DNA of 64,000 nucleotides, taken from NCBI RefSeq assembly GCF_965641715.1, contig NZ_OZ282453.1; one strand, written 5' to 3'. How positions within the stretch are numbered: position 1 is the stretch's first letter; each line of letters begins with the position of its first letter. Below, piece by piece: positions 9,413 through 49,404 of the stretch. The translations under genes and the position numbers were made by a program. The stretch comes from Escherichia coli (GTDB lineage Bacteria; Pseudomonadota; Gammaproteobacteria; Enterobacterales; Enterobacteriaceae). Below the pieces are notes generated by a model. It searched no databases. It saw nothing but the letters and a program-made list of their open reading frames with translations, and was not told where the DNA came from.

Positions 9413-9539
9413 TTTCATTACTGCAAATGCCCCTGCGGGGGCATTTATGGAAACGTAATTTACTCAATAATCGCCGGATGGTGAGGGATTCTTTTTACCA
9501 GAATTCAGCGCGGTGCAGCGCATATACGTGGAGAACAAA

Positions 9540-33070: not shown

Positions 33071-33118
33071 ACTCCCTATGCCCGATAACATTTTGCTTAT
33101 CGGGCATTTTTATGGCGA

Positions 33119-34783
33119 TTAAAACGTTTCCCAGTTCTCCCCGCTATCTGCCACTGCCATTTTACGCGGCGTAGCTGGCGTCACGGTTTTTACCACAGCC
33201 GATGTTTCACGCTGCTGTTGCTGCTGTTGCTGAATCCGGAACACTGCCACAGCTTCGGTCAGGCGACTGGCCTGCTCTTCCAGCGCGGCGGCGGCAGCGG
33301 CAGATTCTTCCACCAGCGCGGCGTTCTGTTGAGTTACCCGGTCCATCTCAGCAACCGCTAAGCCAACCTGATCGATACCACGGCTCTGCTCATCAGAAGC
33401 AGAAGCAATTTCGCCCATAATGTCCGTCACGCGGGTCACAGCACTGACAATCTCCGCCATTGTTTCCCCGGCGCTTTCGACCAGCGTAGAGCCAACATCC
33501 ACTTTCCCCACCGAGTCTTCAATCAGGCTTTTAATTTCACGAGCCGCCTGGGCGCTACGCTGGGCCAGATTACGCACTTCACCCGCGACCACCGCAAAAC
33601 CGCGCCCTTGCTCACCCGCACGCGCAGCCTCAACCGCCGCGTTCAAAGCCAGAATATTGGTCTGGAAAGCAATGCCGTCAATTACGCTGATAATATCGGC
33701 GATTTTCTGCGAACTGGTGGAGATATCGCGCATAGTCTGCACCACGTTATCTACCACTTTGCCGCCGCGTTGCGCCGTTTCAGAAGCACTTAATGCCAGA
33801 TGGCTGGCCTGGCGCGCATTCTCGGCGTTCTGTTTCACCGTTGCGGTCAGTTGCTCCATGCTGGCTGCCGTCTCTTCCAGCGAAGCGGCCTGTTGCTCGG
33901 TGCGCGAAGAGAGATCGTTATTGCCGGTAGCGATTTCGCTGGCACCGCTATAGATGGCATTGGCCCCGTTGCGCACATCACCGACGGTACGCATCAGTTC
34001 TCCCTGCATATGGCGCAAACTCTCTGCCAGTTGCCCCATCTCATTAGAGCCATCCACCTCAATCGGTTTCACCAGATCGCCGCCTGCAATATGACGGATG
34101 CTGTCAATCAGGCGATTCATTGGCGCTACCAGCGAGGCTTTAATACCGAACCAGACGGCGAAGATGACCGCCAGTACCACGATCATCACGCCCACCAGAA
34201 TCCACATCGCCTGGCTGTAGGAGGCATTGTTATCGCTGACGGCGATATCATAGAGCCGATCGTTTTGCTCCATGTAAGCCACATACTGCTTCTCGAAACC
34301 GTCTTGATATCCCTGGGTCGGCTGATCAAAGAACTCGTTGATTTTGCCTGCACCTAACAGTTGGATCAGCTCCGCCAGCGCATTGTGATAAATATCGTAA
34401 TTACGTTTGATCTCTGCCGCTGCGGCGGTGCTCTGACGCGGGTCACGCGGCAACGCTTCGTAATCCGCCCAGTTTTTTTCCGCCTGTTTCAACGAAATAC
34501 TGGCACTCTGCATCAGCTCAGCAACGGTTGAACCGCTACCAATATTATTCTGATCCATCATGTAGCGGATACCCGCGCGGTTGAGGGTGTTACGCGTCTG
34601 CAACAACGCGACCCAGCTGCCATTCAGCGTGGATTGCTGCTGGCGAATGGTTTGTAAAACAGTGAAATTTTCTTTGTCATTCTTTAAGGCATTAAAGAAC
34701 AGACCGCCTGATGTCAGTTGTAAAAGGCCAAAAACGGCCAAAACCAGCAGTAAGCTGGTCACGATCTTGATACGTTTTAACAT
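33119..34783 (-). CDS. tsr: Methyl-accepting chemotaxis protein I (serine chemoreceptor Tsr)
   Basis: 554 aa; highly conserved MCP signalling domain; C-terminal NWETF pentapeptide. Confidence 0.9.
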
Positions 34784-34901
34784 GGTTTCTCTTTCCTGTG
34801 GACCGATGCAAGATTTTCGGCCTGGAAAGCAAAAACTTTATGAAAAGGTGTAACCCGCCATCCATGGAAAAACCAGGCGCTGGTTATCAGATACTAAAAA
34901 G

Positions 34902-35348
34902 TTATTCATTATCGCCCGGGATGTCTTCTTGTCGGGAATTGCCCAGAGCAATAAATTCCTCTAACAGATGGGTTAACTGTTGCATTTTCTCGGCAGTAAA
35001 CTGAGCTTCAATCTGCCGATAGGCTTCTTCAATCTGTGTCTGAGCGCGGTTATACAGCGCCTGCCCCTCTTTGGTCAGCGAGATATAGAGCTTCCGCTGA
35101 TCATTGATCGGCTTTAATCGCAACACTAGACCGTCGCGTTCCATCCGCGTGAGGATCCCGGTCAGGCTTGGGCGCAAAATGCAGGCGCGATACGCCAGAT
35201 CGTGAAAATCCATTGATGGGCTTTCCGCCAGAATACGCACGATGCGCCACTGTTGCTCAGTCAAATTATGCCGTTTAACGATTGGGCGAAAATAACTCAT
35301 CGCCGCTTCTCGCGCCTGGAGCAACGCAATGGTTAGTGAGTCGTGCAT
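34902..35348 (-). CDS. hpaR: MarR-family repressor HpaR of the hpa operon
   Basis: 148 aa from MHDSLTIALLQ; MarR wHTH; divergent from hpaG. Confidence 0.75.
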   Translation of the reverse strand: MHDSLTIALLQAREAAMSYFRPIVKRHNLTEQQWRIVRILAESPSMDFHDLAYRACILRPSLTGILTRMERDGLVLRLKPINDQRKLYISLTKEGQALYNRAQTQIEEAYRQIEAQFTAEKMQQLTHLLEEFIALGNSRQEDIPGDNE

Positions 35349-35619
35349 TATCTTTCCCCTGAAAAATTCAAAATCATTAATATAGAAACAGTTAATCGTC
35401 ACGTTACCGGGACTGCGCTGTCCCTGCAATTCCTGATTTTATCAAAATTGATGATATTTTATTAACTTACTGATATTTAATATTTTATTATCTTTAAATG
35501 TAAATAGTTTGTTAATTAGATCACATTTACATCACTTACTTTTGCCAAACTACGCAATCGGGAATAAAAGTAATCATTAACATATTAATGATTAAGATGA
35601 TCGAATCCGAGGAGTGGTA

Positions 35620-36909
35620 ATGAAAGGCACTATCTTCGCCGTAGCGTTGAACCATCGCAGCCAGCTTGATGCATGGCAGGACGCGTTCCAGCAATCCCCC
35701 TACAAAGCCCCGCCTAAAACTGCGGTCTGGTTTATTAAACCGCGCAATACGGTGATTGGTTGCGGTGAACCGATTCCCTTTCCACAGAGTGAAAAGGTAC
35801 TGAGCGGTGCGACAGTTGCGCTGATTGTGGGAAAAACGGCGACGAAAGTACGTGAAGAAGATGCGGCAGAGTACATCGCCGGATATGCGCTGGCTAACGA
35901 CGTCAGCCTGCCGGAAGAGAGCTTTTACCGTCCGGCAATCAAAGCAAAATGTCGTGATGGATTCTGCCCCATTGGCGAAACCGTGGCTCTCAGCAATGTC
36001 GATAATCTGACTATCTATACCGAGATCAACGGGCGTCCTGCCGATCACTGGAATACCGCCGATTTACAACGTAACGCCGCACAGCTGCTGAGCGCCCTGA
36101 GCGAATTTGCCACGCTGAATCCAGGCGATGCTATTCTGCTCGGCACGCCACAGGCGCGCGTGGAAATACAGCCAGGCGATCGCGTGCGTGTTCTCGCAGA
36201 AGGTTTCCCGCCGCTGGAAAATCCGGTAGTGGACGAACGTGAAGTGACCACGCGCAAGAGCTTCCCAACGCAGCCACACCCGCACGGCACGCTGTTTGCC
36301 CTCGGCCTGAACTACGCCGACCACGCCAGCGAACTGGAATTTAAGCCACCGGAAGAACCGCTGGTGTTCCTGAAAGCGCCGAATACCCTCACTGGCGATA
36401 ACCAGACCTCCGTGCGCCCGAACAATATTGAATACATGCACTACGAAGCGGAGCTGGTGGTGGTGATTGGCAAGCAGGCGCGTAACGTCAGCGAAGCCGA
36501 TGCCATGGATTATGTCGCGGGCTACACCGTGTGTAACGACTACGCCATTCGCGACTATCTGGAAAACTACTACCGCCCTAACCTGCGGGTAAAAAGCCGC
36601 GACGGACTGACGCCGATGCTTTCAACCATCGTGCCGAAAGAGGCGATCCCGGACCCGCATAATCTGACCCTTCGCACCTTCGTCAACGGCGAGTTACGCC
36701 AGCAAGGCACCACCGCCGATCTGATCTTCAGCGTGCCCTTCCTGATCGCCTACTTAAGCGAATTTATGACCCTGAATCCGGGCGACATGATCGCCACCGG
36801 CACACCAAAAGGCTTATCTGACGTGGTGCCTGGCGATGAAGTAGTGGTGGAAGTAGAAGGCGTGGGCCGCTTGGTGAACCGAATTGTGAGTGAGGATACA
36901 GCGAAATGA
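35620..36909 (+). CDS. hpaG: Bifunctional HpaG isomerase/decarboxylase (FAH family, two domains)
   Basis: About 429 aa; tandem fumarylacetoacetate-hydrolase-like domains. Confidence 0.8.
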   Translation: MKGTIFAVALNHRSQLDAWQDAFQQSPYKAPPKTAVWFIKPRNTVIGCGEPIPFPQSEKVLSGATVALIVGKTATKVREEDAAEYIAGYALANDVSLPEESFYRPAIKAKCRDGFCPIGETVALSNVDNLTIYTEINGRPADHWNTADLQRNAAQLLSALSEFATLNPGDAILLGTPQARVEIQPGDRVRVLAEGFPPLENPVVDEREVTTRKSFPTQPHPHGTLFALGLNYADHASELEFKPPEEPLVFLKAPNTLTGDNQTSVRPNNIEYMHYEAELVVVIGKQARNVSEADAMDYVAGYTVCNDYAIRDYLENYYRPNLRVKSRDGLTPMLSTIVPKEAIPDPHNLTLRTFVNGELRQQGTTADLIFSVPFLIAYLSEFMTLNPGDMIATGTPKGLSDVVPGDEVVVEVEGVGRLVNRIVSEDTAK

Positions 36910-38372
36910 AAAAAGTAAATCATTGGATCAACGGCAAAAATGTCGCAGGTAACGACTACTTCCAGACCACCAATCCGGCAACCGGTGAAGTGCTGGCGGA
37001 TGTGGCCTCTGGCGGTGAAGCGGAGATCAATCAGGCGGTAGCGGCAGCGAAAGAGGCGTTCCCGAAATGGGCCAATCTGCCGATGAAAGAGCGTGCGCGC
37101 CTGATGCGCCGTCTGGGCGATCTGATCGACCAGAACGTGCCGGAGATCGCCGCGATGGAAACCGCTGACACGGGCCTGCCGATCCATCAGACCAAAAACG
37201 TGTTGATCCCACGCGCTTCCCACAACTTTGAATTTTTCGCGGAAGTCTGCCAGCAGATGAACGGCAAGACCTATCCGGTTGACGACAAGATGCTCAACTA
37301 CACGCTGGTGCAGCCGGTGGGCGTTTGTGCGCTGGTATCGCCGTGGAACGTGCCGTTTATGACCGCCACCTGGAAGGTCGCGCCGTGTCTGGCGCTGGGC
37401 AATACCGCGGTGCTGAAGATGTCCGAACTCTCCCCGCTGACCGCTGACCGCCTGGGTGAGCTGGCGCTGGAAGCCGGTATTCCGGCGGGCGTGCTGAACG
37501 TGGTACAGGGCTACGGCGCAACCGCAGGCGATGCGCTGGTCCGTCATCATGACGTGCGTGCCGTGTCGTTCACCGGCGGTACGGCGACCGGGCGCAATAT
37601 CATGAAAAACGCCGGGCTGAAAAAATACTCCATGGAACTGGGCGGTAAATCGCCGGTGCTGATTTTTGAAGATGCCGATATTGAGCGCGCGCTGGACGCC
37701 GCCCTGTTCACCATCTTCTCGATCAACGGCGAACGCTGCACCGCCGGTTCGCGCATCTTTATTCAGCAGAGCATCTACCCGGAATTTATAAAGCGCTTTG
37801 CCGAACGCGCTAACCGTCTGCGCGTGGGCGATCCGACCGATCCGAATACCCAGGTGGGGGCGCTTATCAGCCAGCAACACTGGGAAAAAGTCTCCGGCTA
37901 TATCCGTCTGGGCATTGAAGAAGGCGCAACCCTGCTGGCGGGCGGCCCGGATAAACCGTCCGACCTGCCTGCGCACCTGAAAGGCGGCAACTTCCTGCGC
38001 CCAACGGTGCTGGCGGATGTCGATAACCGCATGCGAGTGGCGCAGGAAGAGATCTTCGGGCCGGTCGCCTGCCTGCTGCCGTTTAAAGACGAAGCCGAAG
38101 GTCTGCGCCTGGCAAACGACGTGGAGTACGGCCTCGCGTCGTACATCTGGACACAGGATGTCAGCAAAGTGTTACGCCTGGCGCGTGGCATTGAAGCAGG
38201 CATGGTGTTCGTCAACACCCAGAACGTGCGTGACCTGCGCCAGCCATTTGGCGGCGTAAAAGCCTCCGGCACCGGGCGTGAAGGCGGTGAGTACAGCTTC
38301 GAAGTGTTCGCGGAAATGAAGAACGTCTGCATTTCCATGGGCGACCATCCCATTCCGAAATGGGGAGTCTGA
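36906..38372 (+). CDS. hpaE: 5-carboxymethyl-2-hydroxymuconate semialdehyde dehydrogenase
   Basis: 488 aa aldehyde dehydrogenase (ELGGKSP, catalytic Cys context GERCTAGSR). Confidence 0.85.
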   Translation: MKKVNHWINGKNVAGNDYFQTTNPATGEVLADVASGGEAEINQAVAAAKEAFPKWANLPMKERARLMRRLGDLIDQNVPEIAAMETADTGLPIHQTKNVLIPRASHNFEFFAEVCQQMNGKTYPVDDKMLNYTLVQPVGVCALVSPWNVPFMTATWKVAPCLALGNTAVLKMSELSPLTADRLGELALEAGIPAGVLNVVQGYGATAGDALVRHHDVRAVSFTGGTATGRNIMKNAGLKKYSMELGGKSPVLIFEDADIERALDAALFTIFSINGERCTAGSRIFIQQSIYPEFIKRFAERANRLRVGDPTDPNTQVGALISQQHWEKVSGYIRLGIEEGATLLAGGPDKPSDLPAHLKGGNFLRPTVLADVDNRMRVAQEEIFGPVACLLPFKDEAEGLRLANDVEYGLASYIWTQDVSKVLRLARGIEAGMVFVNTQNVRDLRQPFGGVKASGTGREGGEYSFEVFAEMKNVCISMGDHPIPKWGV

Positions 38373-38373
38373 T

Positions 38374-39225
38374 ATGGGTAAGTTAGCATTAGCAGCAAAA
38401 ATCACACACGTACCGTCGATGTATCTCTCTGAACTGCCTGGGAAAAACCACGGTTGTCGCCAGGGCGCGATCGACGGGCATAAAGAGATCAGCAAGCGTT
38501 GCCGGGAAATGGGCGTCGATACCATTATCGTTTTCGATACCCACTGGCTGGTCAACAGTGCTTATCACATCAACTGTGCAGACCATTTTGAAGGCGTCTA
38601 CACCAGCAACGAGCTGCCGCATTTTATTCGTGACATGACCTACAACTACGAGGGCAACCCGGAGTTGGGGCAGCTTATTGCCGATGAAGCCTTAAAGCTC
38701 GGCGTGCGGGCGAAAGCGCACAACATTCCCAGCCTCAAACTGGAGTACGGCACGCTGGTACCGATGCGCTACATGAATGAAGACAAGCGCTTCAAAGTGG
38801 TCTCCATTTCGGCTTTCTGCACGGTTCACGATTTTGCCGACAGCCGCAAGCTGGGCGAAGCGATTCTGAAAGCGATCGAACAGTACGACGGCACCGTGGC
38901 GGTCCTTGCCAGCGGTTCGTTATCGCACCGCTTTATTGACGATCAGCGTGCGGAAGAAGGGATGAACAGCTATACCCGCGAGTTCGACCGCCAGATGGAC
39001 GAGCGTGTGGTGAAGCTGTGGCGCGAAGGCCAGTTCAAAGAGTTTTGCAATATGCTGCCGGAGTACACCGACTACTGCTACGGCGAAGGCAATATGCACG
39101 ACACGGTGATGCTGCTGGGGATGCTCGGCTGGGATAAATACGACGGCAAGGTGGAGTTTATTACCGAGCTGTTCCCAAGCTCTGGCACCGGTCAGGTTAA
39201 CGCTGTTTTCCCGCTGCCCGCGTAA
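38374..39225 (+). CDS. hpaD: Homoprotocatechuate 2,3-dioxygenase (extradiol)
   Basis: 283 aa; position within the hpaGEDFHI operon. Confidence 0.85.
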   Translation: MGKLALAAKITHVPSMYLSELPGKNHGCRQGAIDGHKEISKRCREMGVDTIIVFDTHWLVNSAYHINCADHFEGVYTSNELPHFIRDMTYNYEGNPELGQLIADEALKLGVRAKAHNIPSLKLEYGTLVPMRYMNEDKRFKVVSISAFCTVHDFADSRKLGEAILKAIEQYDGTVAVLASGSLSHRFIDDQRAEEGMNSYTREFDRQMDERVVKLWREGQFKEFCNMLPEYTDYCYGEGNMHDTVMLLGMLGWDKYDGKVEFITELFPSSGTGQVNAVFPLPA

Positions 39226-39234
39226 GGACGTTTT

Positions 39235-39615
39235 ATGCCGCACTTTATCGTGGAATGTACTGAAAATATTCGTGAAGAAGCCCGCTTACCTGAGCTGTTT
39301 GCCAGTGTTAACACTGCACTGGCGGCAACGGGGATTTTTCCGCTTGGGGGAATACGTAGCCGGGCGCACTGGATCGATACCTGGCAAATGGCTGATGGCA
39401 AGCACGATTACGCCTTTGTGCATATGACGCTAAAAATCGGCAGCGGACGCAGTCTGGAAAGCCGTCAGGAAGTGGGCGAAATGCTGTTTGATCTGATTAA
39501 AACGCACTTCGCCTCACTGATGGAGAGCCGTTACCTGGCGCTTTCATTTGAGATTGCAGAGCTGCACCCGACGTTGAATTTCAAACAGAACAACGTACAC
39601 GCGTTGTTTAAATAA
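39235..39615 (+). CDS. hpaF: 5-carboxymethyl-2-hydroxymuconate isomerase
   Basis: 126 aa, MPHFIVECT tautomerase-like N-terminus. Confidence 0.8.
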
Positions 39616-39682
39616 ATTTGCACCAGCTTCCAGGCCGGATGATAAGGCGCTGCCGCATCCGGCAATGCCACAGGATATCGCT

Positions 39683-40486
39683 ATGTTCGATAAACACACC
39701 CACACCCTGATCGCCCAGCGTCTGGATCAGGCAGAAAAACAGCGCGAACAGATCCGCGCGATCTCCCTGGATTATCCGGAGATCACCATCGAAGACGCTT
39801 ACGCGGTGCAGCGTGAATGGGTTCGACTGAAAATCGCCGAAGGTCGCACGCTGAAAGGCCACAAAATCGGCCTGACCTCGAAAGCGATGCAGGCCAGCTC
39901 GCAGATCAGCGAACCAGATTACGGTGCCCTGCTGGATGACATGTTCTTCCACGATGGCAGCGATATCCCGACCGATCGCTTTATCGTGCCGCGCATTGAA
40001 GTGGAGCTGGCTTTCGTGCTGGCAAAACCGCTGCGTGGGCCAAACTGCACGCTGTTCGACGTTTACAACGCCACGGACTATGTGATCCCGGCGCTGGAGC
40101 TGATCGACGCTCGCTGCCACAACATCGATCCGGAAACCCAGCGCCCGCGTAAAGTGTTCGACACCATTTCTGATAACGCCGCCAATGCCGGGGTGATCCT
40201 CGGTGGTCGTCCCATTAAGCCCGATGAGTTGGATCTACGTTGGATCTCCGCCCTGATGTATCGCAATGGCGTGATTGAAGAAACCGGCGTCGCCGCTGGT
40301 GTGCTGAATCATCCGGCAAACGGCGTGGCCTGGCTGGCGAACAAACTCGCACCCTATGACGTACAACTGGAAGCCGGGCAAATCATTCTCGGCGGTTCGT
40401 TTACCCGCCCGGTTCCGGCGCGTAAGGGCGACACCTTCCACGTCGATTACGGCAACATGGGCTCCATTAGCTGCCGCTTTGTTTAA
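39683..40486 (+). CDS. hpaH: 2-oxo-hept-3-ene-1,7-dioate hydratase
   Basis: 267 aa from MFDKHTHTL; the ORF track starts 18 nt upstream. Confidence 0.8.
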
Positions 40487-40496
40487 GGAGAGAACG

Positions 40497-41300
40497 ATGG
40501 AAAACAGTTTTAAAGCGGCGCTGAAAGCAGGCCGCCCGCAGATCGGATTATGGCTGGGGCTGAGTAGCAGTTACAGCGCAGAGTTACTGGCCGGAGCAGG
40601 ATTCGACTGGTTGTTGATCGACGGTGAACACGCGCCGAACAACGTGCAAACCGTGCTCACCCAGCTACAGGCGATTGCGCCCTATCCCAGCCAACCGGTA
40701 GTACGTCCGTCGTGGAACGATCCAGTGCAAATCAAACAACTGCTGGACGTCGGTACACAAACCTTACTGGTGCCGATGGTACAAAACGCTGACGAAGCCC
40801 GTGAAGCGGTATGCGCCACCCGTTATCCCCCCGCCGGTATTCGCGGTGTGGGCAGTGCGCTGGCTCGCGCCTCGCGCTGGAATCGTATTCCTGATTACCT
40901 GCAAAAAGCCAACGATCAAATGTGCGTGCTGGTGCAGATCGAAACGCGTGAGGCAATGAAGAACTTACCGCAGATTCTGGACGTGGAAGGAGTCGACGGC
41001 GTGTTTATCGGCCCGGCGGATCTGAGCGCCGATATGGGTTATGCCGGTAATCCACAGCACCCGGAAGTACAGGTCGCCATTGAGCAGGCGATCGTGCAGA
41101 TCCGCGAAGCGGGCAAAGCGCCGGGGATTCTGATCGCCAATGAGCAACTGGCAAAACGCTATCTGGAACTGGGCGCGCTGTTTGTCGCCGTCGGCGTTGA
41201 CACCACCCTGCTCGCCCGCGCCGCTGAAGCGCTGGCAGCACGGTTTGGTAATAGTTCTTCTATTTCGATGGCGAAGCAAAACAACAACTCTGTCTACTAA
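40497..41300 (+). CDS. hpaI: 4-hydroxy-2-oxoheptanedioate aldolase
   Basis: Start at [19 protein letters not shown], class II aldolase family; the ORF track extends upstream. Confidence 0.8.
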
Positions 41301-41321
41301 ACGTACGATGTGGAGCGCATC

Positions 41322-42677
41322 ATGACGACCTCTACCCTGCAATATAAAGATAATAAAACTGTTGAAATTGAACATCGTGTCATTAATAAATTATTTCGTC
41401 GCCTAATCATTTTTCTTTTTATTCTGTTTGTTTTTTCGTTTCTTGATCGCATCAATATAGGATTTGCCGGACTGACAATGGGCAAGGATCTTGGCCTGAC
41501 GTCCACAATGTTTGGCCTCGCCGCGACACTCTTTTATGTCACGTACGTCATGTGCGGGATCCCCAGTAATATGATGTTAGCGAAAATTGGCGCTCGTCGA
41601 TGGATCGCTGGGATCATGGTGGTCTGGGGAATTGCTTCCACCTGCACAATGTTTGCAACAAGCCCCGAAACACTCTATCTACTGCGTATGCTGGTTGGTA
41701 TTGCTGAGGCGGGTTTTTTACCTGGTATTTTGGTTTATCTGACCTGGTGGTTCCCGGCATATCATCGGGCCAGAGCCAATGCCTTATTTATGATAGCGAT
41801 GCCAGTCACTATGATGCTGGGATCGATCCTTTCAGGCTACATTCTGGCCTTGGATGGACTGTGGAATCTAAAAGGCTGGCAATGGCTCTTTTTGCTGGAA
41901 GGTCTGCCATCGGTCATTCTTGGTGTCGTCACCTGGTTTTATCTCAACGACACACCAGACCAGGCGACCTGGCTTGATGAAAACGAAAAACAGGCTTTAA
42001 AAACGATGATTCTCCGTGAACAAGAGAGTGCATTTGCCCATGCATCTGTTCCACGCTCAACCTTACGTGAAGTCCTGACCCCAGCCATCATGCTATATAC
42101 ACTTGCTTATTTTTGCCTGACCAATACTCTGAGTGCGATTAATATCTGGACGCCGCAAATCCTACAGAGTTTCAATACTGGCAGTAGCAACATCATGATT
42201 GGTTTGCTGGCGGCCATCCCCCAATTCTGCACAATTTTTGGCATGATCTGGTGGAGTCGTCGTTCCGACCGTCTTAAAGAACGCAAAAAGCATACGATTC
42301 TTCCCTACCTGTTTGCCGCTGCCGGATGGTTACTCGCTTCTGCGACAGATCACAGCCTCATTCAACTGAGCGGCATCATTATGGCCTCAATGGGATCATT
42401 TACCGCGATGGCTATCTTTTGGACAACACCGGATCAAGTTATAAGCTTGCAATCGCGTGCCGTTGCGATGGCTGTCATCAATGCTGTCGGCAATGTAGGT
42501 TCAGCAGTCAGTCCATTACTTATCGGTATTTTGAAAGATGCAACCGGCAGTTTTAGCTCAGGTTTGTGGTTTGTAGCAGGATTGCTGGTACTGGGCGCGT
42601 TAGTCATGACCCGAATCCCTATGGGGAGTCGGGAACACTCTCTTTCATCTGAACTTATCGCACCAAAACCGCAATAA
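41322..42677 (+). CDS. hpaX: MFS 4-hydroxyphenylacetate transporter
   Basis: About 451 aa, 12-TM MFS; start could be 41310. Confidence 0.75.
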   Translation: MTTSTLQYKDNKTVEIEHRVINKLFRRLIIFLFILFVFSFLDRINIGFAGLTMGKDLGLTSTMFGLAATLFYVTYVMCGIPSNMMLAKIGARRWIAGIMVVWGIASTCTMFATSPETLYLLRMLVGIAEAGFLPGILVYLTWWFPAYHRARANALFMIAMPVTMMLGSILSGYILALDGLWNLKGWQWLFLLEGLPSVILGVVTWFYLNDTPDQATWLDENEKQALKTMILREQESAFAHASVPRSTLREVLTPAIMLYTLAYFCLTNTLSAINIWTPQILQSFNTGSSNIMIGLLAAIPQFCTIFGMIWWSRRSDRLKERKKHTILPYLFAAAGWLLASATDHSLIQLSGIIMASMGSFTAMAIFWTTPDQVISLQSRAVAMAVINAVGNVGSAVSPLLIGILKDATGSFSSGLWFVAGLLVLGALVMTRIPMGSREHSLSSELIAPKPQ

Positions 42678-42683
42678 GGAGTC

Positions 42684-43577
42684 ATGATGTCCAGTGAAGC
42701 TATCTTTGAACATGGTTATGAAAATATTGATTTGGTCCGGGAATATGATGCCCGCTACGCTGGTGAAGATGTGCATTATGAAACATTTGCCCGGTTAGCG
42801 AATTTCTTTGGACGCGATATGCGCCCTCACTGGCACGATAGATATTTTCAACTCCATTATCTGGTCACTGGACGCATTACTTTACAACTGGATGAGCACT
42901 TCTATTCTGTGCGCGCACCGCTTTTTGTACTAACACCACCATCGGTGCCACATACTTTCTTTACTGATCCTGATAGCGATGGGCATGTTCTGACCGTACG
43001 TCAGGAGTTAATTTGGCCCCTGGTAGAAAAGCTCTGGCCTGGTAGTGGAGATGCCGCAATGCTACAAGGTATCTGTCTGTCACTGGAGGGAATGGAACAT
43101 ACACTGGCGGCATTAAATCATTATTGGCCGATAATATCCCGGGAGTTTCAACAAAATAAGCCAGGACGGGAAATTCTATTGCAATCACTGGCGCAAAGTA
43201 TTTTTACAATCCTACTGCGTGAAGCACCACCAAATGATATTTCAACATGCAGCGTGCGCGGCGAGATGTGTTTATTCCAGAAGTTTAATCGGCTGATTGA
43301 CGAAAATTATCGCCAACATTTAATGGTCCCTGAATATGCAACAATGCTCGGTATGAGTGAATCACGGCTTACCGAGCTGTGCCGACGTTTTGCCAATCAA
43401 TCGCCGAAGAGATTGATTTTCGAACGAGTGAGCCGGGAAGCCAGACGGCTTCTGCTCTATAGCGAGCAAAGCATCAACCAGATAGCCCTTGATCTTGGCT
43501 ACAAAGATCCCGCCTATTTCGCCCGTTTTTTCAACCGAATGATGGGTTGCTCACCAACACAATTCCGTGGTCGCTGA
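42684..43577 (+). CDS. hpaA: AraC/XylS-family activator of hpaBC
   Basis: 297 aa; C-terminal AraC HTH. Confidence 0.75.
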   Translation: MMSSEAIFEHGYENIDLVREYDARYAGEDVHYETFARLANFFGRDMRPHWHDRYFQLHYLVTGRITLQLDEHFYSVRAPLFVLTPPSVPHTFFTDPDSDGHVLTVRQELIWPLVEKLWPGSGDAAMLQGICLSLEGMEHTLAALNHYWPIISREFQQNKPGREILLQSLAQSIFTILLREAPPNDISTCSVRGEMCLFQKFNRLIDENYRQHLMVPEYATMLGMSESRLTELCRRFANQSPKRLIFERVSREARRLLLYSEQSINQIALDLGYKDPAYFARFFNRMMGCSPTQFRGR

Positions 43578-43602
43578 CCATTTATCAACCTGAGAGACTC
43601 GA

Positions 43603-44542
43603 CATGAAAATATCTTTACGCTCACTATTTGTGGCGTGCCTGATTGCGCCAGTGGCATTCACCTACGCCTCCGAACCGCAAGAAATGAAAATTGTACTAC
43701 TTGGAACGAAAGGTGGCCCTTCTTTATTAAAAGCTGACCGTTTACCGATGGCAACGGCACTTATTATTGGCAATAAAACCTGGTTAATTGATGCTGGTTA
43801 CGGGGCCAGCTTACAACTGGTAAAAAATAATATTCCACTGCGCCAGATTGATAATATTTTACTCACCCATTTACACAGTGATCATATTCTGGACTATCCA
43901 TCAGTCTTAATGAATGCATGGGCTAGCGGTCTGCAGGACAAAACTATTCATGTGTTCGGTCCGCCAGGCACCCGAGCCATGACCGCTGCCAGTTGGCAGG
44001 TCTTCGATCGGGACATCACACTGCGTATGGAAGAAGAAGGAAAACCCGATCCTCGCAAACTCGTTACAGCTCAAGATGTTGGTGAAGGCGTAGTTTATAA
44101 AGATGATACCGTGACCGTGACTGCATTAAAGGTCCCTCATTCTCCTTTCCCTGACGGTGAGGCTTTTGCTTATCGCTTCGACACACAAGGCAAGCGAATT
44201 GTCTTCTCAGGAGATACCTCGTACTTTCCCCCACTGGCAACTTTCTCAGAAGGCGCTGATATACTTGTGCATGAGGCCGTACATGAGCCCTCCGTCGCTA
44301 AGCTGGCAGACAGTATTGGCAATGGTAAAACACTGGCAAAAGCCATTGCTTCTCACCATACGACTATTGAGGATGTAGGCAAAATTGCCAATGAAGCAAA
44401 AGTGAAAAAACTCATCCTTAGCCACCTGGTACCAATCACCGTTCCGGATGAAACATGGAAGCAAGAAGCACAGAAAAACTATTCAGGCCCTATCGTCGTT
44501 GGTCATGAAAATATGACGATTACCATTCCATTCGCCCCATAA
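43603..44542 (+). CDS. Secreted MBL-fold metallo-hydrolase (unknown substrate)
   Basis: Signal peptide MKISLRSLFVACLIAPVAFTYA; HxHxDH motif LLTHLHSDHILDY; low GC relative to flanking hpa genes. Confidence 0.55.
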
Positions 44543-44768
44543 AAAATTCCGTCCCCGTTAGCCCTTGTTAGCGGGGAATATTATGATTTGCCTTACTGTA
44601 AGTTGATCACGATCGCAGTTTACTATTTAACTCCACCTTGCTGGCGAAAAGTACCAACGTTCGCCTGAAACGTCTCTTCCCGACAACCGCGTTCAACGCT
44701 TCAATTAAATAACAAAAACAACACACAAAATTAACAATCGTATTCCGATTAATACTGTAGAGGTCGAC

Positions 44769-46331
44769 ATGAAACCAGAAGATTTCCGCGCCAGTACCCA
44801 ACGTCCGTTCACCGGGGAAGAGTATCTGAAAAGCCTGCAGGATGGTCGCGAGATCTATATCTATGGCGAGCGAGTGAAAGACGTCACCACTCATCCGGCA
44901 TTTCGTAATGCGGCAGCGTCTGTTGCCCAACTGTACGACGCGCTGCACAAACCGGAGATGCAGGACTCTCTGTGTTGGAACACCGACACCGGCAGCGGCG
45001 GCTATACCCATAAATTCTTCCGCGTGGCGAAAAGTGCCGACGACCTGCGCCAGCAACGCGACGCCATCGCTGAGTGGTCACGCCTGAGCTATGGCTGGAT
45101 GGGCCGTACCCCAGACTACAAAGCCGCTTTCGGTTGCGCACTGGGCGCGAATCCGGGCTTTTACGGTCAGTTCGAGCAGAACGCCCGTAACTGGTATACC
45201 CGTATTCAGGAAACTGGCCTCTACTTTAACCACGCGATTGTTAACCCACCGATCGATCGTCATTTGCCGACCGATAAAGTGAAAGACGTTTACATCAAGC
45301 TGGAAAAAGAGACTGACGCCGGGATTATCGTCAGCGGTGCGAAAGTGGTTGCCACCAACTCGGCGCTGACTCACTACAACATGATTGGCTTCGGCTCGGC
45401 ACAAGTGATGGGCGAAAACCCGGACTTCGCACTGATGTTCGTTGCGCCAATGGATGCCGATGGCGTCAAATTAATCTCCCGCGCCTCTTATGAGATGGTC
45501 GCGGGTGCTACCGGCTCGCCATACGACTACCCGCTCTCCAGCCGCTTCGATGAGAACGATGCGATTCTGGTGATGGATAACGTGCTGATCCCATGGGAAA
45601 ACGTGCTGATCTACCGCGATTTTGATCGCTGCCGTCGCTGGACGATGGAAGGCGGTTTTGCCCGTATGTATCCGCTGCAAGCCTGTGTGCGCCTGGCAGT
45701 GAAACTCGACTTCATCACGGCACTGCTGAAAAAATCACTCGAATGTACCGGCACCCTGGAGTTCCGTGGTGTGCAGGCCGATCTCGGTGAAGTGGTAGCG
45801 TGGCGCAACACCTTCTGGGCATTGAGTGACTCGATGTGTTCAGAAGCGACGCCGTGGGTCAACGGGGCTTATTTACCGGATCATGCCGCACTGCAAACCT
45901 ATCGCGTACTGGCACCAATGGCCTACGCGAAGATCAAAAACATTATCGAACGCAACGTTACCAGTGGCCTGATCTACCTCCCTTCCAGTGCCCGTGACCT
46001 GAACAATCCGCAGATCGACCAGTATCTGGCGAAGTATGTGCGCGGTTCGAATGGTATGGATCACGTCCAGCGCATCAAGATCCTCAAACTGATGTGGGAC
46101 GCCATTGGCAGCGAATTTGGTGGTCGTCACGAGCTGTATGAAATCAACTACTCCGGTAGCCAGGATGAGATTCGCTTGCAATGTCTGCGCCAGGCACAAA
46201 GCTCCGGCAATATGGACAAGATGATGGCGATGGTTGATCGCTGCCTGTCGGAATACGACCAGAACGGCTGGACTGTGCCGCACCTGCACAACAACGACGA
46301 TATCAACATGCTGGATAAGCTGCTGAAATAA
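44769..46331 (+). CDS. hpaB: 4-hydroxyphenylacetate 3-monooxygenase, oxygenase component
   Basis: 520 aa starting MKPEDFRASTQRPFTGEEYLKSLQDGREIYIYGERV. Confidence 0.9.
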   Translation: MKPEDFRASTQRPFTGEEYLKSLQDGREIYIYGERVKDVTTHPAFRNAAASVAQLYDALHKPEMQDSLCWNTDTGSGGYTHKFFRVAKSADDLRQQRDAIAEWSRLSYGWMGRTPDYKAAFGCALGANPGFYGQFEQNARNWYTRIQETGLYFNHAIVNPPIDRHLPTDKVKDVYIKLEKETDAGIIVSGAKVVATNSALTHYNMIGFGSAQVMGENPDFALMFVAPMDADGVKLISRASYEMVAGATGSPYDYPLSSRFDENDAILVMDNVLIPWENVLIYRDFDRCRRWTMEGGFARMYPLQACVRLAVKLDFITALLKKSLECTGTLEFRGVQADLGEVVAWRNTFWALSDSMCSEATPWVNGAYLPDHAALQTYRVLAPMAYAKIKNIIERNVTSGLIYLPSSARDLNNPQIDQYLAKYVRGSNGMDHVQRIKILKLMWDAIGSEFGGRHELYEINYSGSQDEIRLQCLRQAQSSGNMDKMMAMVDRCLSEYDQNGWTVPHLHNNDDINMLDKLLK

Positions 46332-46348
46332 CGCAGCAGGAGGTTAAG

Positions 46349-46861
46349 ATGCAATTAGATGAACAACGCCTGCGCTTTCGTGACGCGATGGCCAGCCTGT
46401 CGGCAGCGGTAAATATTATCACCACCGAGGGCGACGCCGGACAATGCGGGATTACGGCAACGGCCGTCTGCTCGGTAACGGATACACCACCGTCGCTGAT
46501 GGTGTGCATTAACGCCAACAGTGCGATGAACCCGGTTTTTCAGGGCAACGGCAAGTTGTGCGTCAACGTCCTCAACCATGAGCAGGAGCTGATGGCACGC
46601 CACTTCGCGGGCATGACGGGCATGGCGATGGAAGAGCGTTTTAGCCTCTCGTGCTGGCAAAAAGGTCCGCTGGCGCAGCCGGTGCTAAAAGGTTCGCTGG
46701 CCAGTCTTGAAGGTGAGATCCGCGATGTGCAGGCAATTGGCACACATCTGGTGTATCTGGTGGAGATTAAAAACATCATCCTCAGTGCAGAAGGTCACGG
46801 ACTTATCTACTTTAAACGCCGTTTCCATCCGGTGATGCTGGAAATGGAAGCTGCGATTTAA
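46349..46861 (+). CDS. hpaC: 4-hydroxyphenylacetate 3-monooxygenase, flavin reductase component
   Basis: 170 aa flavin-reductase-like protein directly downstream of hpaB. Confidence 0.85.
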   Translation: MQLDEQRLRFRDAMASLSAAVNIITTEGDAGQCGITATAVCSVTDTPPSLMVCINANSAMNPVFQGNGKLCVNVLNHEQELMARHFAGMTGMAMEERFSLSCWQKGPLAQPVLKGSLASLEGEIRDVQAIGTHLVYLVEIKNIILSAEGHGLIYFKRRFHPVMLEMEAAI

Positions 46862-47253: not shown

Positions 47254-49404
47254 ATGGATACGAAAAAACTATTCAAGCACATACCCTGGGTGATTCTCGG
47301 AATCATCGGTGCATTCTGCCTCGCGGTAGTTGCATTACGTCGGGGGGAGCACGTCAGCGCCCTGTGGATCGTGGTCGCCTCTGTGTCGGTGTATCTGGTG
47401 GCGTATCGCTACTACAGTCTGTACATCGCCCAGAAGGTGATGAAACTCGACCCCACACGCGCGACGCCTGCGGTTATTAACAACGACGGTCTGAACTACG
47501 TTCCGACCAACCGTTACGTGTTGTTTGGTCACCACTTCGCCGCTATCGCCGGTGCTGGTCCGCTGGTTGGTCCGGTGCTCGCCGCGCAGATGGGCTACCT
47601 GCCTGGCACGCTGTGGCTGCTGGCGGGGGTAGTGCTGGCCGGTGCGGTACAGGACTTTATGGTGCTGTTTATCTCCTCTCGCCGTAACGGCGCATCTCTC
47701 GGTGAGATGATCAAAGAAGAGATGGGGCCAGTACCGGGGACTATCGCGCTGTTTGGCTGTTTTTTAATCATGATCATCATCCTCGCCGTTCTGGCGCTGA
47801 TTGTGGTTAAAGCCCTGGCCGAAAGTCCGTGGGGTGTCTTCACCGTTTGCTCAACCGTACCAATTGCGCTGTTTATGGGTATCTACATGCGCTTTATCCG
47901 TCCGGGGCGTGTGGGTGAAGTCTCTGTCATTGGTATCGTGCTGCTGGTTGCCTCTATCTACTTCGGTGGCGTGATTGCTCACGATCCGTACTGGGGTCCG
48001 GCACTGACCTTTAAAGACACCACCATTACCTTCGCGCTGATTGGCTATGCGTTTGTTTCCGCACTGCTGCCGGTGTGGCTGATCCTCGCACCGCGCGATT
48101 ATCTGGCAACCTTCCTGAAAATCGGCGTTATCGTCGGCCTGGCGCTGGGTATCGTGGTGCTGAACCCGGAACTGAAAATGCCTGCGATGACCCAGTACAT
48201 TGACGGTACTGGCCCGCTGTGGAAAGGCGCTCTGTTCCCGTTCCTGTTCATCACCATCGCCTGTGGTGCGGTATCTGGCTTCCACGCGCTGATCTCTTCC
48301 GGTACGACGCCGAAACTGCTGGCTAACGAAACCGACGCGCGTTTCATTGGCTACGGCGCAATGCTGATGGAGTCCTTCGTGGCGATTATGGCGCTGGTTG
48401 CTGCGTCCATCATCGAACCGGGTCTTTACTTCGCGATGAATACCCCGCCTGCGGGCCTTGGCATCACCATGCCTAACCTGCATGAAATGGGTGGCGAGAA
48501 CGCGCCGATCATCATGGCGCAGCTGAAAGACGTTACCGCACACGCGGCGGCGACCGTCAGCTCCTGGGGCTTCGTGATTTCGCCAGAGCAGATCCTGCAA
48601 ACCGCGAAAGACATTGGTGAGCCTTCTGTCCTGAACCGTGCAGGTGGTGCGCCGACGCTGGCGGTAGGTATCGCTCATGTGTTCCACAAAGTGCTGCCGA
48701 TGGCTGACATGGGCTTCTGGTATCACTTCGGTATTCTGTTCGAAGCCCTGTTCATCCTGACCGCGCTGGATGCGGGTACCCGTTCTGGCCGCTTTATGCT
48801 GCAAGACCTGCTGGGTAACTTCATCCCGTTCCTGAAAAAAACCGACTCTCTGGTTGCCGGTATCATCGGTACTGCGGGCTGTGTGGGTCTGTGGGGCTAC
48901 CTGCTGTATCAGGGCGTGGTCGATCCGCTGGGCGGCGTTAAGAGCCTGTGGCCGCTGTTCGGTATCTCCAACCAGATGCTGGCAGCCGTAGCGCTGGTAC
49001 TGGGCACCGTTGTGCTGATTAAGATGAAGCGCACCCAATACATCTGGGTAACTGTTGTTCCGGCTGTATGGCTGCTTATCTGCACCACCTGGGCGCTGGG
49101 TCTGAAACTGTTCAGTACCAACCCGCAGATGGAAGGCTTCTTCTACATGGCAAGCCAGTACAAAGAGAAGATTGCTAACGGTACTGACCTGACGGCGCAG
49201 CAGATTGCCAACATGAACCACATCGTTGTGAACAACTACACCAACGCAGGCCTGAGTATTCTGTTCCTGATTGTGGTGTACAGCATCATCTTCTACGGTT
49301 TCAAAACCTGGCTTGCGGTGCGTAACAGCGACAAACGTACTGACAAAGAAACACCGTACGTTCCAATCCCGGAAGGCGGCGTGAAGATCTCTTCGCACCA
49401 CTAA
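47254..49404 (+). CDS. btsT: CstA-family pyruvate/H+ symporter BtsT (YjiY)
   Basis: About 716 aa from MDTKKLFKHIPW; polytopic membrane protein of the CstA family. Confidence 0.8.
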   Translation: MDTKKLFKHIPWVILGIIGAFCLAVVALRRGEHVSALWIVVASVSVYLVAYRYYSLYIAQKVMKLDPTRATPAVINNDGLNYVPTNRYVLFGHHFAAIAGAGPLVGPVLAAQMGYLPGTLWLLAGVVLAGAVQDFMVLFISSRRNGASLGEMIKEEMGPVPGTIALFGCFLIMIIILAVLALIVVKALAESPWGVFTVCSTVPIALFMGIYMRFIRPGRVGEVSVIGIVLLVASIYFGGVIAHDPYWGPALTFKDTTITFALIGYAFVSALLPVWLILAPRDYLATFLKIGVIVGLALGIVVLNPELKMPAMTQYIDGTGPLWKGALFPFLFITIACGAVSGFHALISSGTTPKLLANETDARFIGYGAMLMESFVAIMALVAASIIEPGLYFAMNTPPAGLGITMPNLHEMGGENAPIIMAQLKDVTAHAAATVSSWGFVISPEQILQTAKDIGEPSVLNRAGGAPTLAVGIAHVFHKVLPMADMGFWYHFGILFEALFILTALDAGTRSGRFMLQDLLGNFIPFLKKTDSLVAGIIGTAGCVGLWGYLLYQGVVDPLGGVKSLWPLFGISNQMLAAVALVLGTVVLIKMKRTQYIWVTVVPAVWLLICTTWALGLKLFSTNPQMEGFFYMASQYKEKIANGTDLTAQQIANMNHIVVNNYTNAGLSILFLIVVYSIIFYGFKTWLAVRNSDKRTDKETPYVPIPEGGVKISSHH

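Follow-up and report, generated by a model that had tools for sequence, protein, structure and literature searches.

A mosaic form of the Escherichia coli hpa island with a foreign hpaX-hpaA block and a putative periplasmic ester hydrolase

In 1996, Prieto, Diaz and Garcia reportedly described the hpa cluster of Escherichia coli W, C and B, which consists of hpaR, hpaGEDFHI, hpaX, hpaA and hpaBC. The E. coli C annotation (NZ_CP020543) is used here as the canonical reference. Among metallo-beta-lactamase (MBL)-fold proteins, PNGM-1 is a B3-like enzyme with both RNase Z and beta-lactamase activity. The S4 arylsulfatases have been characterized on artificial aryl sulfates only (PMC5066984).

The window, a 64,000-nucleotide stretch of E. 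coli DNA, contains a complete hpaR / hpaGEDFHI / hpaX-hpaA / hpaBC island between tsr (33119-34783, minus strand; a 554-aa ORF) and btsT (47254-49404, plus strand), as originally predicted. Both flanking ORFs map onto the annotated genes of the E. coli C RefSeq entry, and every cluster gene is an intact ORF within 34902-46861. The gene for HpaR, the MarR-type repressor of the meta-cleavage operon, lies on the minus strand (34902-35348); the two other cassette-carrying strains that were checked, A30 and C4, have here a gene annotated hpaR, with the protein accession found in E. coli C (WP_000543916.1). All other cluster genes are on the plus strand. The meta-cleavage operon (35620-41300) is formed by hpaG (35620-36909), hpaE (36906-38372), hpaD (38374-39225), hpaF (39235-39615), hpaH (39683-40486) and hpaI (40497-41300). 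It is followed by divergent alleles of hpaX (41322-42677), encoding the 4-HPA permease, and hpaA (42687-43577), encoding the AraC-type activator of hpaBC; both products score above their NCBIfam equivalog cut-offs (HpaX, 862.6 versus 615.4 bits; HpaA, 493 versus 274.65 bits). Next comes a gene for a predicted exported, binuclear-metal MBL-fold hydrolase (43604-44542), whose product has 312 residues rather than the 313 first counted. The 4-HPA 3-monooxygenase and its reductase are encoded by hpaB (44769-46331) and hpaC (46349-46861), which together span 44769-46861, and both proteins are 100% identical to those of E. coli C. Protein identity to E. coli C is 97-100% for HpaG, E, D, H, I, B and C, and 86% for HpaF. 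The locus is a minority, mosaic version of the known E. coli hpa island.

Its main mosaic segment is a xenologous low-GC block of 3.45 kb (41250-44697, plus strand) that stands in for the resident hpaX-hpaA segment, which measures 2.6 kb in E. coli C. In blastn comparison with that strain, nucleotide identity is 96.5% up to 41249, 66-69% inside the block and 98% from 44646. A base-by-base check of the junctions places the left crossover inside hpaI (41249/41250) and the right one in the hpaBC promoter region (~44697/44698), 72 nt 5' of hpaB. The 17 codons that close hpaI, from 41250 on, are consequently of foreign origin and the HpaI C-terminus is altered relative to E. coli C; the full-length protein (267 aa) is 86.5% identical to that of a metagenomic relative, L076. 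The hpaI-hpaX spacer is 21 nt, versus 174 nt in E. coli C. Repeats and transposase genes were looked for at the block flanks and none were found.

Base composition follows the same boundaries. GC is 0.461 in the MBL gene (GC3 0.409), 0.468 in hpaX and 0.464 in hpaA, with GC3 at 0.41-0.48 across the three, whereas canonical hpaX and hpaA have a GC of 0.53-0.54. Values of 0.54-0.60 are found in hpaG, hpaE, hpaD, hpaH, hpaI, hpaB and hpaC, and hpaR (0.51) and hpaF (0.50) are intermediate. The low GC noted for the MBL ORF is therefore real, but it is an anomaly of three genes and not of one. Likewise, the suggestion of a secondary insertion is right in that the gene is foreign to the canonical cluster, but it came with a divergent hpaX-hpaA in a replacement of 3.45 kb. 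The MBL gene arrived in a block replacing the resident hpaX-hpaA, not as a single-gene insertion; we are highly confident of the mosaic replacement and the fold taken together. Homologous recombination, with crossovers at the hpaI 3' end and within the hpaBC promoter region, would have swapped in the block, which brought its own hpaX, its own hpaA and a third gene for an MBL-fold hydrolase. The donor would have been some Enterobacterales lineage of lower GC. A second, smaller mosaic patch (39151-39707, plus strand) takes in hpaF, with the 3' end of hpaD on one side and the hpaF-hpaH spacer on the other; measured in 150-nt windows, its nucleotide identity to E. coli C is 62-88%, versus 96.5% over the whole aligned region 33001-41249. 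E. coli C4 has the same divergent hpaF allele.

The block is present in 48 of 2071 hpaB-positive complete E. coli genomes, always on the chromosome and at an identity of at least 99%; in all 48 the PGAP label of the MBL gene is 'MBL fold metallo-hydrolase'. The canonical allele occurs in 2022, and the otherwise equivalent cluster of these genomes, devoid of the MBL gene, counts against a functional tie. A tblastn search of E. coli C with the MBL protein found no trace of it, and at this place the match to E. coli C and BL21 begins only with hpaB, confirming that the canonical E. coli cluster lacks the ORF. Being intact, under constraint and present in only 48 of those 2071 E. coli genomes, the gene is neither a universal cluster member with a known role nor a pseudogene. 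HpaX is 71% identical to its counterparts in E. coli C and Salmonella, and 84-89% to those of L076 and of the Entomohabitans and Pluralibacter types. HpaA is 58% identical to that of E. coli C; its best relatives are a metagenomic protein (83%) and those of Pluralibacter gergoviae (80%) and Entomohabitans (77%). Where the hpaX-hpaA pair is most like that of the block, in metagenomic L076/L077, Pluralibacter and Entomohabitans, no MBL gene follows hpaA, and relative to L076/L077 the window segment 43580-44599 is a clean indel of ~1 kb. The MBL gene is thus dispensable and behaves as a clean indel. A search for close plasmid copies of it gave none.

The MBL gene starts 26 nt past the hpaA stop codon, and hpaX 21 nt past that of hpaI. 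After the MBL stop codon there is a hairpin with an 11-bp stem (44552-44577, plus strand), probably a transcript end or stabilizer. The 65-nt stretch that bears it (44536-44600) has a minimum free energy of -18 kcal/mol (z = -3.0 versus shuffles); a simple terminator scan did not call the hairpin, whose T tail is weak. Because the gaps are short and the hairpin appears only after the MBL gene, hpaX, hpaA and the MBL gene are probably co-transcribed with hpaGEDFHI, prolonging that HPA-inducible operon. Within the hpaBC promoter region (44600-44768, plus strand), 44600-44697 derives from the foreign block, whereas E. coli C has the identical sequence for 44698-44768. An alignment of four hpaB upstream regions shows GAAAAGTACC and GTCTCTTC as motifs kept in every one.

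The MBL protein has the features ascribed to it by the original prediction. Codons 1-22 (43604-43669) encode a Sec-type presequence, MKISLRSLFVACLIAPVAFTYA followed by SEPQ, with an n-region, an h-region and a cleavage site between TYA and S. The HxHxDH motif is H89-L-H-S-D-H94 (nt 43868-43885), and the AF2 model (pLDDT 92) has a core beginning at residue 27. Of 60 family members, 53 have a presequence, and 19 of these presequences bear a Tat-like RR motif. Exported by its signal peptide, the protein would be a periplasmic two-metal hydrolase from the ElaC/AtsA branch of the superfamily. Purifying selection evidently acts on the gene, judging from its substitution pattern: relative to Salmonella pN is 0.14 and pS is saturated at 0.79, pN being higher for hpaA (0.27) and hpaX (0.20). 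The two E. coli alleles differ by six synonymous and two non-synonymous sites.

HMM classification of the subfamily, as had been proposed, returned Pfam Lactamase_B_2 (E 5.6e-20) and partial NCBIfam matches, the best being GntH, RNase Z, cyclic-nucleotide phosphodiesterase and PhnP, each far under its cut-off. By sequence, the nearest solved relative is the Pseudoalteromonas atlantica MBL-fold arylsulfatase (8gyg), at 28.7% identity. The family profile scores 193 bits on it (E 6e-56) and 106 bits on PNGM-1 and RNase Z, and it is also the best Foldseek match of the model (TM 0.82-0.84).

Homologues of the gene recur beside HPA genes. In all 24 Salmonella enterica contigs read, hpaA is followed by the MBL gene after a 14-nt gap, and the arizonae and diarizonae type strains share this order. 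In Pseudomonas putida and in three Alcanivorax or Alloalcanivorax species the homologue directly follows hpaI, and in Cobetia it is linked to HPA or homoprotocatechuate genes. In Stutzerimonas the order is hpaR, an hpaA-like gene, transporters, the MBL gene and a flavin-dependent two-component monooxygenase pair, which differs in fold from HpaBC and which we read as a candidate 4-HPA hydroxylase. The loci of Acinetobacter and P. guariconensis contain an HpaR-like MarR regulator and an OprD porin, that of Acinetobacter additionally an MFS transporter, a GMC oxidoreductase and an aldehyde dehydrogenase. Spacing at homologue loci is operon-like (14-57 nt). Most loci, however, have no hpa homologue within 10 kb except an aldehyde dehydrogenase. 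A Rhodobacteraceae subfamily lacks the presequence and lies inside cytoplasmic-looking operons, which a purely periplasmic scavenging role leaves unexplained. Given its routine presence in the Salmonella enterica locus and its linkage in several other genera, the MBL gene looks like an optional accessory of the hpa cluster rather than an unrelated passenger.

Recurrent placement in HPA or homoprotocatechuate clusters of distant bacteria, export, and an arylsulfatase as closest characterized relative together suggest that the protein most likely cuts an ester-conjugated 4-hydroxyphenyl-C2 compound. Among candidate substrates an aryl O-sulfate ranks first, ahead of a phosphate ester; HpaX would then import the released phenolic acid for degradation. 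From the gene context, a functional tie to the HPA pathway is probable. Sulfatase activity itself, argued from 29% identity to one enzyme characterized on artificial substrates only, is possible but doubtful. As a whole, the reading of a foreign-block island with a periplasmic HPA-pathway ester hydrolase is one toward which we lean slightly.

An unrelated MBL ORF could instead have landed between hpaA and hpaB in some donor lineage and now be carried along with the cluster, with no HPA role; in essence this is the secondary insertion of the original prediction. The clean indel, the Pluralibacter and Entomohabitans loci, the 2022 E. coli clusters and the majority of homologue loci, with no hpa homologue nearby but an aldehyde dehydrogenase, all fit such a history. 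We nevertheless judge it improbable, as the gene matches its neighbors hpaX and hpaA in GC and GC3, is operon-like in spacing and is under stronger purifying selection than hpaA, and as searches revealed neither a mobile-element signature nor close plasmid copies. Moreover, the linkage recurs in Salmonella, Pseudomonas, Alcanivorax, Stutzerimonas and Cobetia in differing gene orders, even beside a differently folded candidate hydroxylase pair. Similarly improbable is a periplasmic phosphodiesterase or nuclease of the ElaC/ZiPD, PhnP or CpdP type, which would act on nucleotides, cyclic nucleotides or other phosphoesters and serve to scavenge phosphate or nucleosides or to cleave a phosphorylated phenolic. 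The best partial NCBIfam matches named above favor it, the fold agrees well with those of RNase Z, YhfI, ElaC and a PhnP-family diphosphatase, and the presequence-less Rhodobacteraceae homologues adjoin an APH-family kinase. Yet these NCBIfam scores are far too low (127 bits versus a cut-off of 252 for RNase Z), the flexible tRNA arm of RNase Z (about residues 151-200) has no counterpart, the family profile favors the arylsulfatase by 87 bits, and phosphate scavenging leaves the hpa linkage unexplained.

Among the activities originally suggested, homology best supports a sulfatase; lactonase and beta-lactamase fare poorly. Many MBL-fold enzymes are lactonases, and three Rhodobacteraceae homologues sit between homogentisate dioxygenase and fumarylacetoacetase, so that a quorum-quenching AHL lactonase or an enzyme for a hydroxyphenylacetate-derived lactone (for example homogentisate gamma-lactone) might be considered. 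Those homologues are only 37-39% identical and lack the presequence, however; with the AidB lactonase model the protein reaches 17.7 bits where 360 are required, the PDB sequence matches listed at E <= 0.001 include no lactonase, and no lactone intermediate is known in the homoprotocatechuate meta-cleavage route. This reading is very unlikely. Hardly credible is a beta-lactamase-like resistance enzyme akin to PNGM-1 as an ancestor of subclass B3: the fold, the HxHxDH motif, the predicted periplasmic site and the rank of PNGM-1 among top sequence and fold matches would agree with it, but the 17 NCBIfam families listed at E <= 0.01 include no beta-lactamases, and the neighboring genes are catabolic, not resistance-related.

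Compared with known proteins, the MBL protein shares with PNGM-1 the fold and an aligned core of similar length (TM about 0.78), but identity is only 22-24% and the profile score about half that of the arylsulfatase. With tRNase Z/ZiPD (ElaC) it shares the sub-branch of the fold, and its HEA and H-T-T motifs are similar to the HEAT and HST motifs of tRNase Z; it differs in its missing arm, its predicted export and scores under all RNase Z equivalog cut-offs. The SulfAtlas S4 arylsulfatases (Pseudoalteromonas carrageenovora AtsA and P. atlantica 8gyg) have the same ElaC-like fold and HxHxDH motif, although the family-invariant lysine of LLGTKGGPS (K36) is Met in 8gyg; the likeness is one of sequence and fold, and the window's sulfatase-like protein sits in a catabolic HPA cluster.

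At the level of the locus, the island shares its chromosomal site and gene order with E. coli C and differs from it in the xenologous hpaX and hpaA, the extra MBL gene, the shorter hpaI-hpaX spacer, the changed HpaI C-terminus and the divergent hpaF allele. The Salmonella enterica locus (hpaGEDFHI-hpaX-hpaA-MBL) adjoins a DnaJ-like and MerR-like gene pair, which we take to be cbpA-cbpM. Salmonella was rejected as donor of the block, as it has canonical-type hpaX and hpaA, with 71% and 58% identity to those in the window, and its hpaBC lies at the opposite end of the cluster. The two loci nonetheless agree in hpaX-hpaA-MBL order and tight spacing, and their MBL proteins are 77% identical and share the presequence architecture.

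The window carries a complete hpa island at 34902-46861, with hpaR on the minus strand followed on the plus strand by hpaG, hpaE, hpaD, hpaF, hpaH, hpaI, hpaX, hpaA, an extra ORF, hpaB and hpaC. The island is bracketed on the chromosome by tsr and btsT and is collinear with those of E. coli C, strain A30 and a further strain, C4. All ORFs are intact, which together with the collinearity confirms the full cluster that the original prediction had placed between tsr and btsT. HpaG, HpaE, HpaD, HpaH, HpaI, HpaB and HpaC are 97-100% identical to their E. coli C counterparts (tblastn), and HpaX and HpaA exceed the NCBIfam equivalog cut-offs. The hpa pathway is a textbook route of aromatic-acid catabolism, and HpaBC is also used in biotechnology. 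The island itself is already known; its mosaic allele occurs as a natural variant, to which the RefSeq annotation draws no attention.

The mosaic consists of a block of foreign sequence that contains hpaX, hpaA and the extra ORF (43604-44542, plus strand), which encodes a metallo-hydrolase of the metallo-β-lactamase (MBL) fold. Identity to E. coli C by blastn is 96.5% up to 41249 and 98% from 44646, whereas between these positions it drops to 66-69% and extends only over parts of hpaX and hpaA. Base-by-base comparison with E. coli C places the left junction at 41249/41250, inside hpaI, so that the last 17 codons of that gene (within 41250-41321) are foreign and replace the canonical C terminus ending in AVKPGVY. 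On the right side, the two sequences agree without a break from 44698 onward, 72 nt ahead of the hpaB start codon (ATG), after a semi-conserved stretch at 44646-44697. The incoming block of 3.45 kb takes the place of 2.6 kb of resident DNA, and its HpaX and HpaA are 71% and 58% identical to the canonical proteins. In the window hpaI is intact and encodes 267 residues; in the nearly identical strain A30 (contig L002, 7812-8617) the gene is annotated as frameshifted.

Base composition sets the same three genes apart. The GC content is 0.468 for hpaX, 0.464 for hpaA and 0.461 for the MBL gene, with third-position values (GC3) of 0.476, 0.418 and 0.409, compared with 0.54-0.60 and GC3 of 0.63-0.72 for hpaG, hpaE, hpaD, hpaH, hpaI, hpaB and hpaC. 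The canonical hpaX and hpaA of E. coli C have GC contents of 0.537 and 0.529 and GC3 of 0.647 and 0.569; hpaR (0.508) and hpaF (0.499) of the window are intermediate. The low GC predicted for the extra ORF was therefore real, but the anomaly is shared equally by hpaX and hpaA and spans three genes.

Two further features of the locus were observed. A second mosaic patch (39151-39707) runs from the 3′ end of hpaD across hpaF and the hpaF-hpaH spacer; here identity to E. coli C falls to 62-88%, compared with 96.5% for the aligned stretch as a whole. The HpaF protein shares no more than 86% identity with its E. coli C counterpart, and C4 carries the same hpaF allele. The canonical hpaI-hpaX spacer (positions 9436-9508 of the E. 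coli C contig, L001) holds a dispersed repeat, probably REP-like: a query with this spacer matches at least three places in every matching genome (median 23), mostly through these ~70 nt. The repeat is missing from the foreign block, where hpaX begins 21 nt past hpaI.

How the block arose can be judged from its edges. The original prediction raised a secondary insertion of the MBL ORF as a possibility; the ORF does separate hpaA from hpaB, but the junctions lie in hpaI and in the hpaBC promoter, and the enclosed hpaX and hpaA share the divergence and the low GC, so a single-gene event does not hold. Delivery by a mobile element is rejected: no terminal repeats, target duplication, transposase or integrase adjoin the MBL gene, where only short repeats at chance level occur, and the junctions lie in homologous sequence. 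A plasmid source is likewise rejected, as no plasmid homologue reaches 60% identity and the best among the matches listed is ~42% identical. Because both junctions fall in sequence that is homologous between the two forms, the structure points to replacement by homologous recombination with DNA from another species.

Among 5426 complete E. coli genomes, 2071 possess hpaB, 2022 of these with the canonical hpaX-hpaA and 48 with the block. Each of the 48 copies lies on the chromosome and matches the window at 99% identity or more; they fall into two sub-alleles (~99.9% and ~99.2% identical to the window). Between the window and C4, which also carries the block, synonymous divergence is 0.025-0.03 in the three block genes, compared with 0.05-0.16 in most neighboring hpa genes (hpaG and hpaF, ~0.03). 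This difference and the two sub-alleles are consistent with a single entry into E. coli, followed by spread among backgrounds by recombination.

Salmonella, which likewise carries an MBL gene after hpaA, is not the donor, as its HpaX and HpaA are 71% and 58% identical to those of the window, no closer than the E. coli C proteins. The closest HpaA proteins found are metagenomic (83%) or from Pluralibacter gergoviae (80%) and Entomohabitans teleogrylli (77%), and these relatives share with the window the tight hpaI-hpaX junction and a longer HpaI C terminus. Although Pluralibacter, Entomohabitans and the metagenomic L076 lineage have the closest HpaA and HpaX found (77-89%), their DNA is only 74-77% identical, their GC content is 55-59% and they have no MBL gene. 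In the metagenomic contigs hpaB directly follows hpaA, so that 43580-44599 of the window is a clean indel relative to them. Since none of the sampled relatives fits in GC, DNA identity and possession of the MBL gene, the donor is a lower-GC lineage not yet sampled. That hpaX, hpaA and the MBL gene are so alike in composition argues that they had long been associated there.

The short spacers within the block (21 nt for hpaI-hpaX, 26 nt for hpaA-MBL) and the absence of any plus-strand promoter-like site near these two junctions suggest that the MBL gene is co-transcribed with hpaX-hpaA and probably also with hpaGEDFHI. Overall, the promoter and terminator scan gave no more matches than shuffled sequence. 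Folding alone revealed a hairpin at 44552-44577, after the MBL stop codon, with an 11-bp stem, a weak U tail and −18 kcal/mol for a 65-nt stretch (z = −3.0). It is likely a terminator or RNA stabilizer that separates the MBL gene from the hpaBC promoter, and the transcript would probably end there. The upstream half of that promoter (44600-44697) was exchanged along with hpaA, which fits a regulator and its putative operator having traveled together. Within 44646-44697, the motifs GAAAAGTACC and GTCTCTTC recur upstream of hpaB in the window, in E. coli C and in two metagenomic relatives, while their surroundings diverge; they are candidate HpaA, CRP or IHF sites.

The MBL ORF starts 26 nt after the hpaA stop codon, behind a GAGAG ribosome-binding sequence. 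It is intact and has both the presequence and the HxHxDH motif that were foreseen, though it encodes 312 residues rather than 313. The protein matches Pfam PF12706 (E = 5.6e-20) and PF00753, its AF2 model (pLDDT 92) has the MBL-superfamily fold, and the PDB fold matches listed are all MBL-fold proteins. The metal-binding motif H89-x-H-x-D-H94 and the further ligands H179, D204 and H274 show no variation among 60 homologues. The N terminus (MKISLRSLFVACLIAPVAFTYA, then SEPQ after the cleavage point) is built like a Sec signal peptide, with an n-region, an h-region and a cleavage site of small residues. Since Cys 12 sits in a poor lipobox (F-V-A-C) and the hydrophobic run before it is too short, we read the protein as a probable SPase I substrate. 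A presequence is found in 53 of 60 family members, with twin-arginine-like motifs in 19, and predicted export is thus a trait of relatives above ~40% identity.

The two E. coli alleles of the gene differ by six synonymous and two non-synonymous changes. Against Salmonella, its pN of 0.14 is lower than that of hpaX (0.20) and hpaA (0.27), with synonymous sites saturated; the gene is under purifying selection. The current annotation of the hydrolase is ‘MBL fold metallo-hydrolase’ and nothing more. By its place in the LT2 gene order, STM1109 is the putative Salmonella homologue. One proteome table (PMC5797601) lists STM1109 under the name ‘putative periplasmic protein’.

The contexts of homologues show that the gene is not a stray. 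The scan covered at least 80 genome stretches, and the absence of a species from its listing carries no meaning. In Salmonella enterica a 77% identical MBL gene lies 14 nt after hpaA in every one of 24 contigs read, as well as in the type strains of arizonae and diarizonae. In Pseudomonas putida and three Alcanivorax/Alloalcanivorax species the homoprotocatechuate operon ends with hpaI and, directly behind it, a homologue of 53-58% identity. Stutzerimonas stutzeri KOS6 (L016, 10001-13455) has hpaR, an hpaA-like gene and transporters upstream of the homologue, and immediately downstream an oxygenase of the acyl-CoA-dehydrogenase fold with a flavin reductase, a pair we read as the C2/C1, non-HpaB type of 4-HPA 3-hydroxylase. 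In Acinetobacter and P. guariconensis the neighbors of the homologue include an OprD porin and a MarR regulator resembling HpaR, the Acinetobacter locus also containing an MFS transporter, a GMC oxidoreductase and an aldehyde dehydrogenase, and Cobetia has hpaE-, hpaF- and hpaH-like genes within 10 kb. Most of the loci listed have no nearby hpa homologue except an aldehyde dehydrogenase, so the linkage to hydroxyphenylacetate pathways is recurrent, not universal.

Rearranged forms occur among contigs with the Salmonella hpa-locus order (L008, 10001-11260; L009, 1412-2671; L005, 1-9700). In some, a deletion from hpaD through hpaA joins the beginning of hpaE to the MBL gene, so that a 419-residue Aldedh-MBL chimera results. 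In another, a Mu-like prophage sits a short way upstream of the MBL gene.

No presequence is present in the homologues from Rhodobacteraceae (L048, L059, L070, L049-L073) and Puniceispirillum, which are 32-39% identical. Some lie between two class-III aminotransferases, with an APH-type kinase alongside; others have homogentisate dioxygenase on one side and fumarylacetoacetase on the other. Near those of Rhodobacteraceae there are also genes for IclR, a Tct transporter, ALDH and phenol hydroxylase. These loci again belong to hydroxyphenylacetate-type metabolism but appear cytoplasmic, and purely periplasmic deconjugation does not account for them. Either this subfamily acts on a different substrate, or the reaction common to the family is some other one. 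Such homologues, below ~40% identity, were left out when inferring the function of the E. coli protein.

Considering that function, the product most likely works in the periplasm, where it would cleave some conjugated form of a 4-hydroxyphenyl-C2 compound, the freed acid then being taken up by HpaX. Our best guess for the substrate is an aryl O-sulfate and our second a phosphate ester. The sulfate is preferred because of a relationship to the S4 arylsulfatases and because the phenolic hydroxyl is the sole feature common to the acids, amines and alcohols suggested by neighboring genes. In its fullest form, which we consider possible but rather improbable, the family (recognized by an LLGTKGGPS motif) would be a dedicated, mostly exported accessory of hydroxyphenylacetate catabolism across Proteobacteria. 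Its enteric member, found in most Salmonella and ~2% of hpa-positive E. coli, would serve in the periplasm as an aryl-sulfatase that desulfates host or plant phenolic conjugates (for example 4-HPA sulfate, DOPAC sulfate and tyramine or dopamine O-sulfates), with the aglycone entering via HpaX.

A search of a literature library found no link of an MBL-fold gene to hpa clusters or to homoprotocatechuate, no paper with hpaX, hpaA and metallo-β-lactamase together and no relevant paper naming 8GYG, the arylsulfatase structure considered below. The hpa pathway appears to have a widespread and overlooked accessory enzyme, probably periplasmic. Deconjugation of sulfated or phosphorylated phenolics would let bacterial carbon catabolism draw on host phase-II metabolites, or on phenolic sulfates of plant and marine origin. 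The locus is also a clean natural case of module swapping by homologous recombination within a catabolic island. One exchange took in a regulator, a transporter and a portion of the promoter that this regulator targets, which bears on how specificity and regulation co-evolve in such islands.

Activities other than a sulfatase were also weighed. RNase Z and PNGM-1 are the next-best solved relatives after an arylsulfatase. The protein is not a tRNase Z: the flexible tRNA-binding arm of tRNase Z/ElaC is missing (residues 151-200 of Bacillus subtilis RNase Z have no counterpart and the alignment splits there), the protein has an N-terminal presequence whereas tRNase Z is cytoplasmic, and every NCBIfam RNase Z model scores far below threshold, the best at 127 bits against a cut-off of 252. 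The original prediction had named lactonase, sulfatase and β-lactamase as candidates, and curated models speak against two of them. The 17 NCBIfam families listed at E ≤ 0.01 include no β-lactamase family and identity to PNGM-1 is 22-24%, arguing against a subclass B3/PNGM-1-type enzyme, and the gene does not look like an antibiotic-resistance determinant. The AidB model speaks against an AHL lactonase of the AiiA/AidB type, at 17.7 bits against a cut-off of 360.

The sulfatase candidate is favored by both profile and fold. The best solved relative by sequence is 8gyg, an arylsulfatase from Pseudoalteromonas atlantica, matched over its full length (E = 1.5e-25). A profile of 60 family members scores 193 bits on 8gyg and 106 on PNGM-1 and RNase Z, and Foldseek with the AF2 model ranks 8gyg first (TM 0.82-0.84), so that the protein is predicted to stand closer to this S4-type arylsulfatase than to tRNase Z. 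8gyg itself appears to belong with the ElaC-like MBL arylsulfatases of SulfAtlas family S4; the paper on the arylsulfatase Ps-Ars (PMC12060045) yielded no active-site information of use. Family S4 is typified by AtsA of P. carrageenovora, so far known to act only on artificial aryl sulfates and with a natural role that is not known (PMC5066984). If our proposal is true, it would give the AtsA/S4-like branch its first physiological substrate and role. Assignment to S4 takes at least 30% identity to a characterized enzyme over the full length together with HxHxDH (PMC5066984). The MBL protein has HxHxDH and is 28.7% identical over 268 aligned pairs to 8gyg, the enzyme compared here rather than AtsA (P28607), and the invariant lysine of LLGTKGGPS is a methionine in 8gyg. 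As the identity is just below the 30% rule and this residue differs, we call the protein a putative S4-like relative of the arylsulfatases, not a member of S4 proper.
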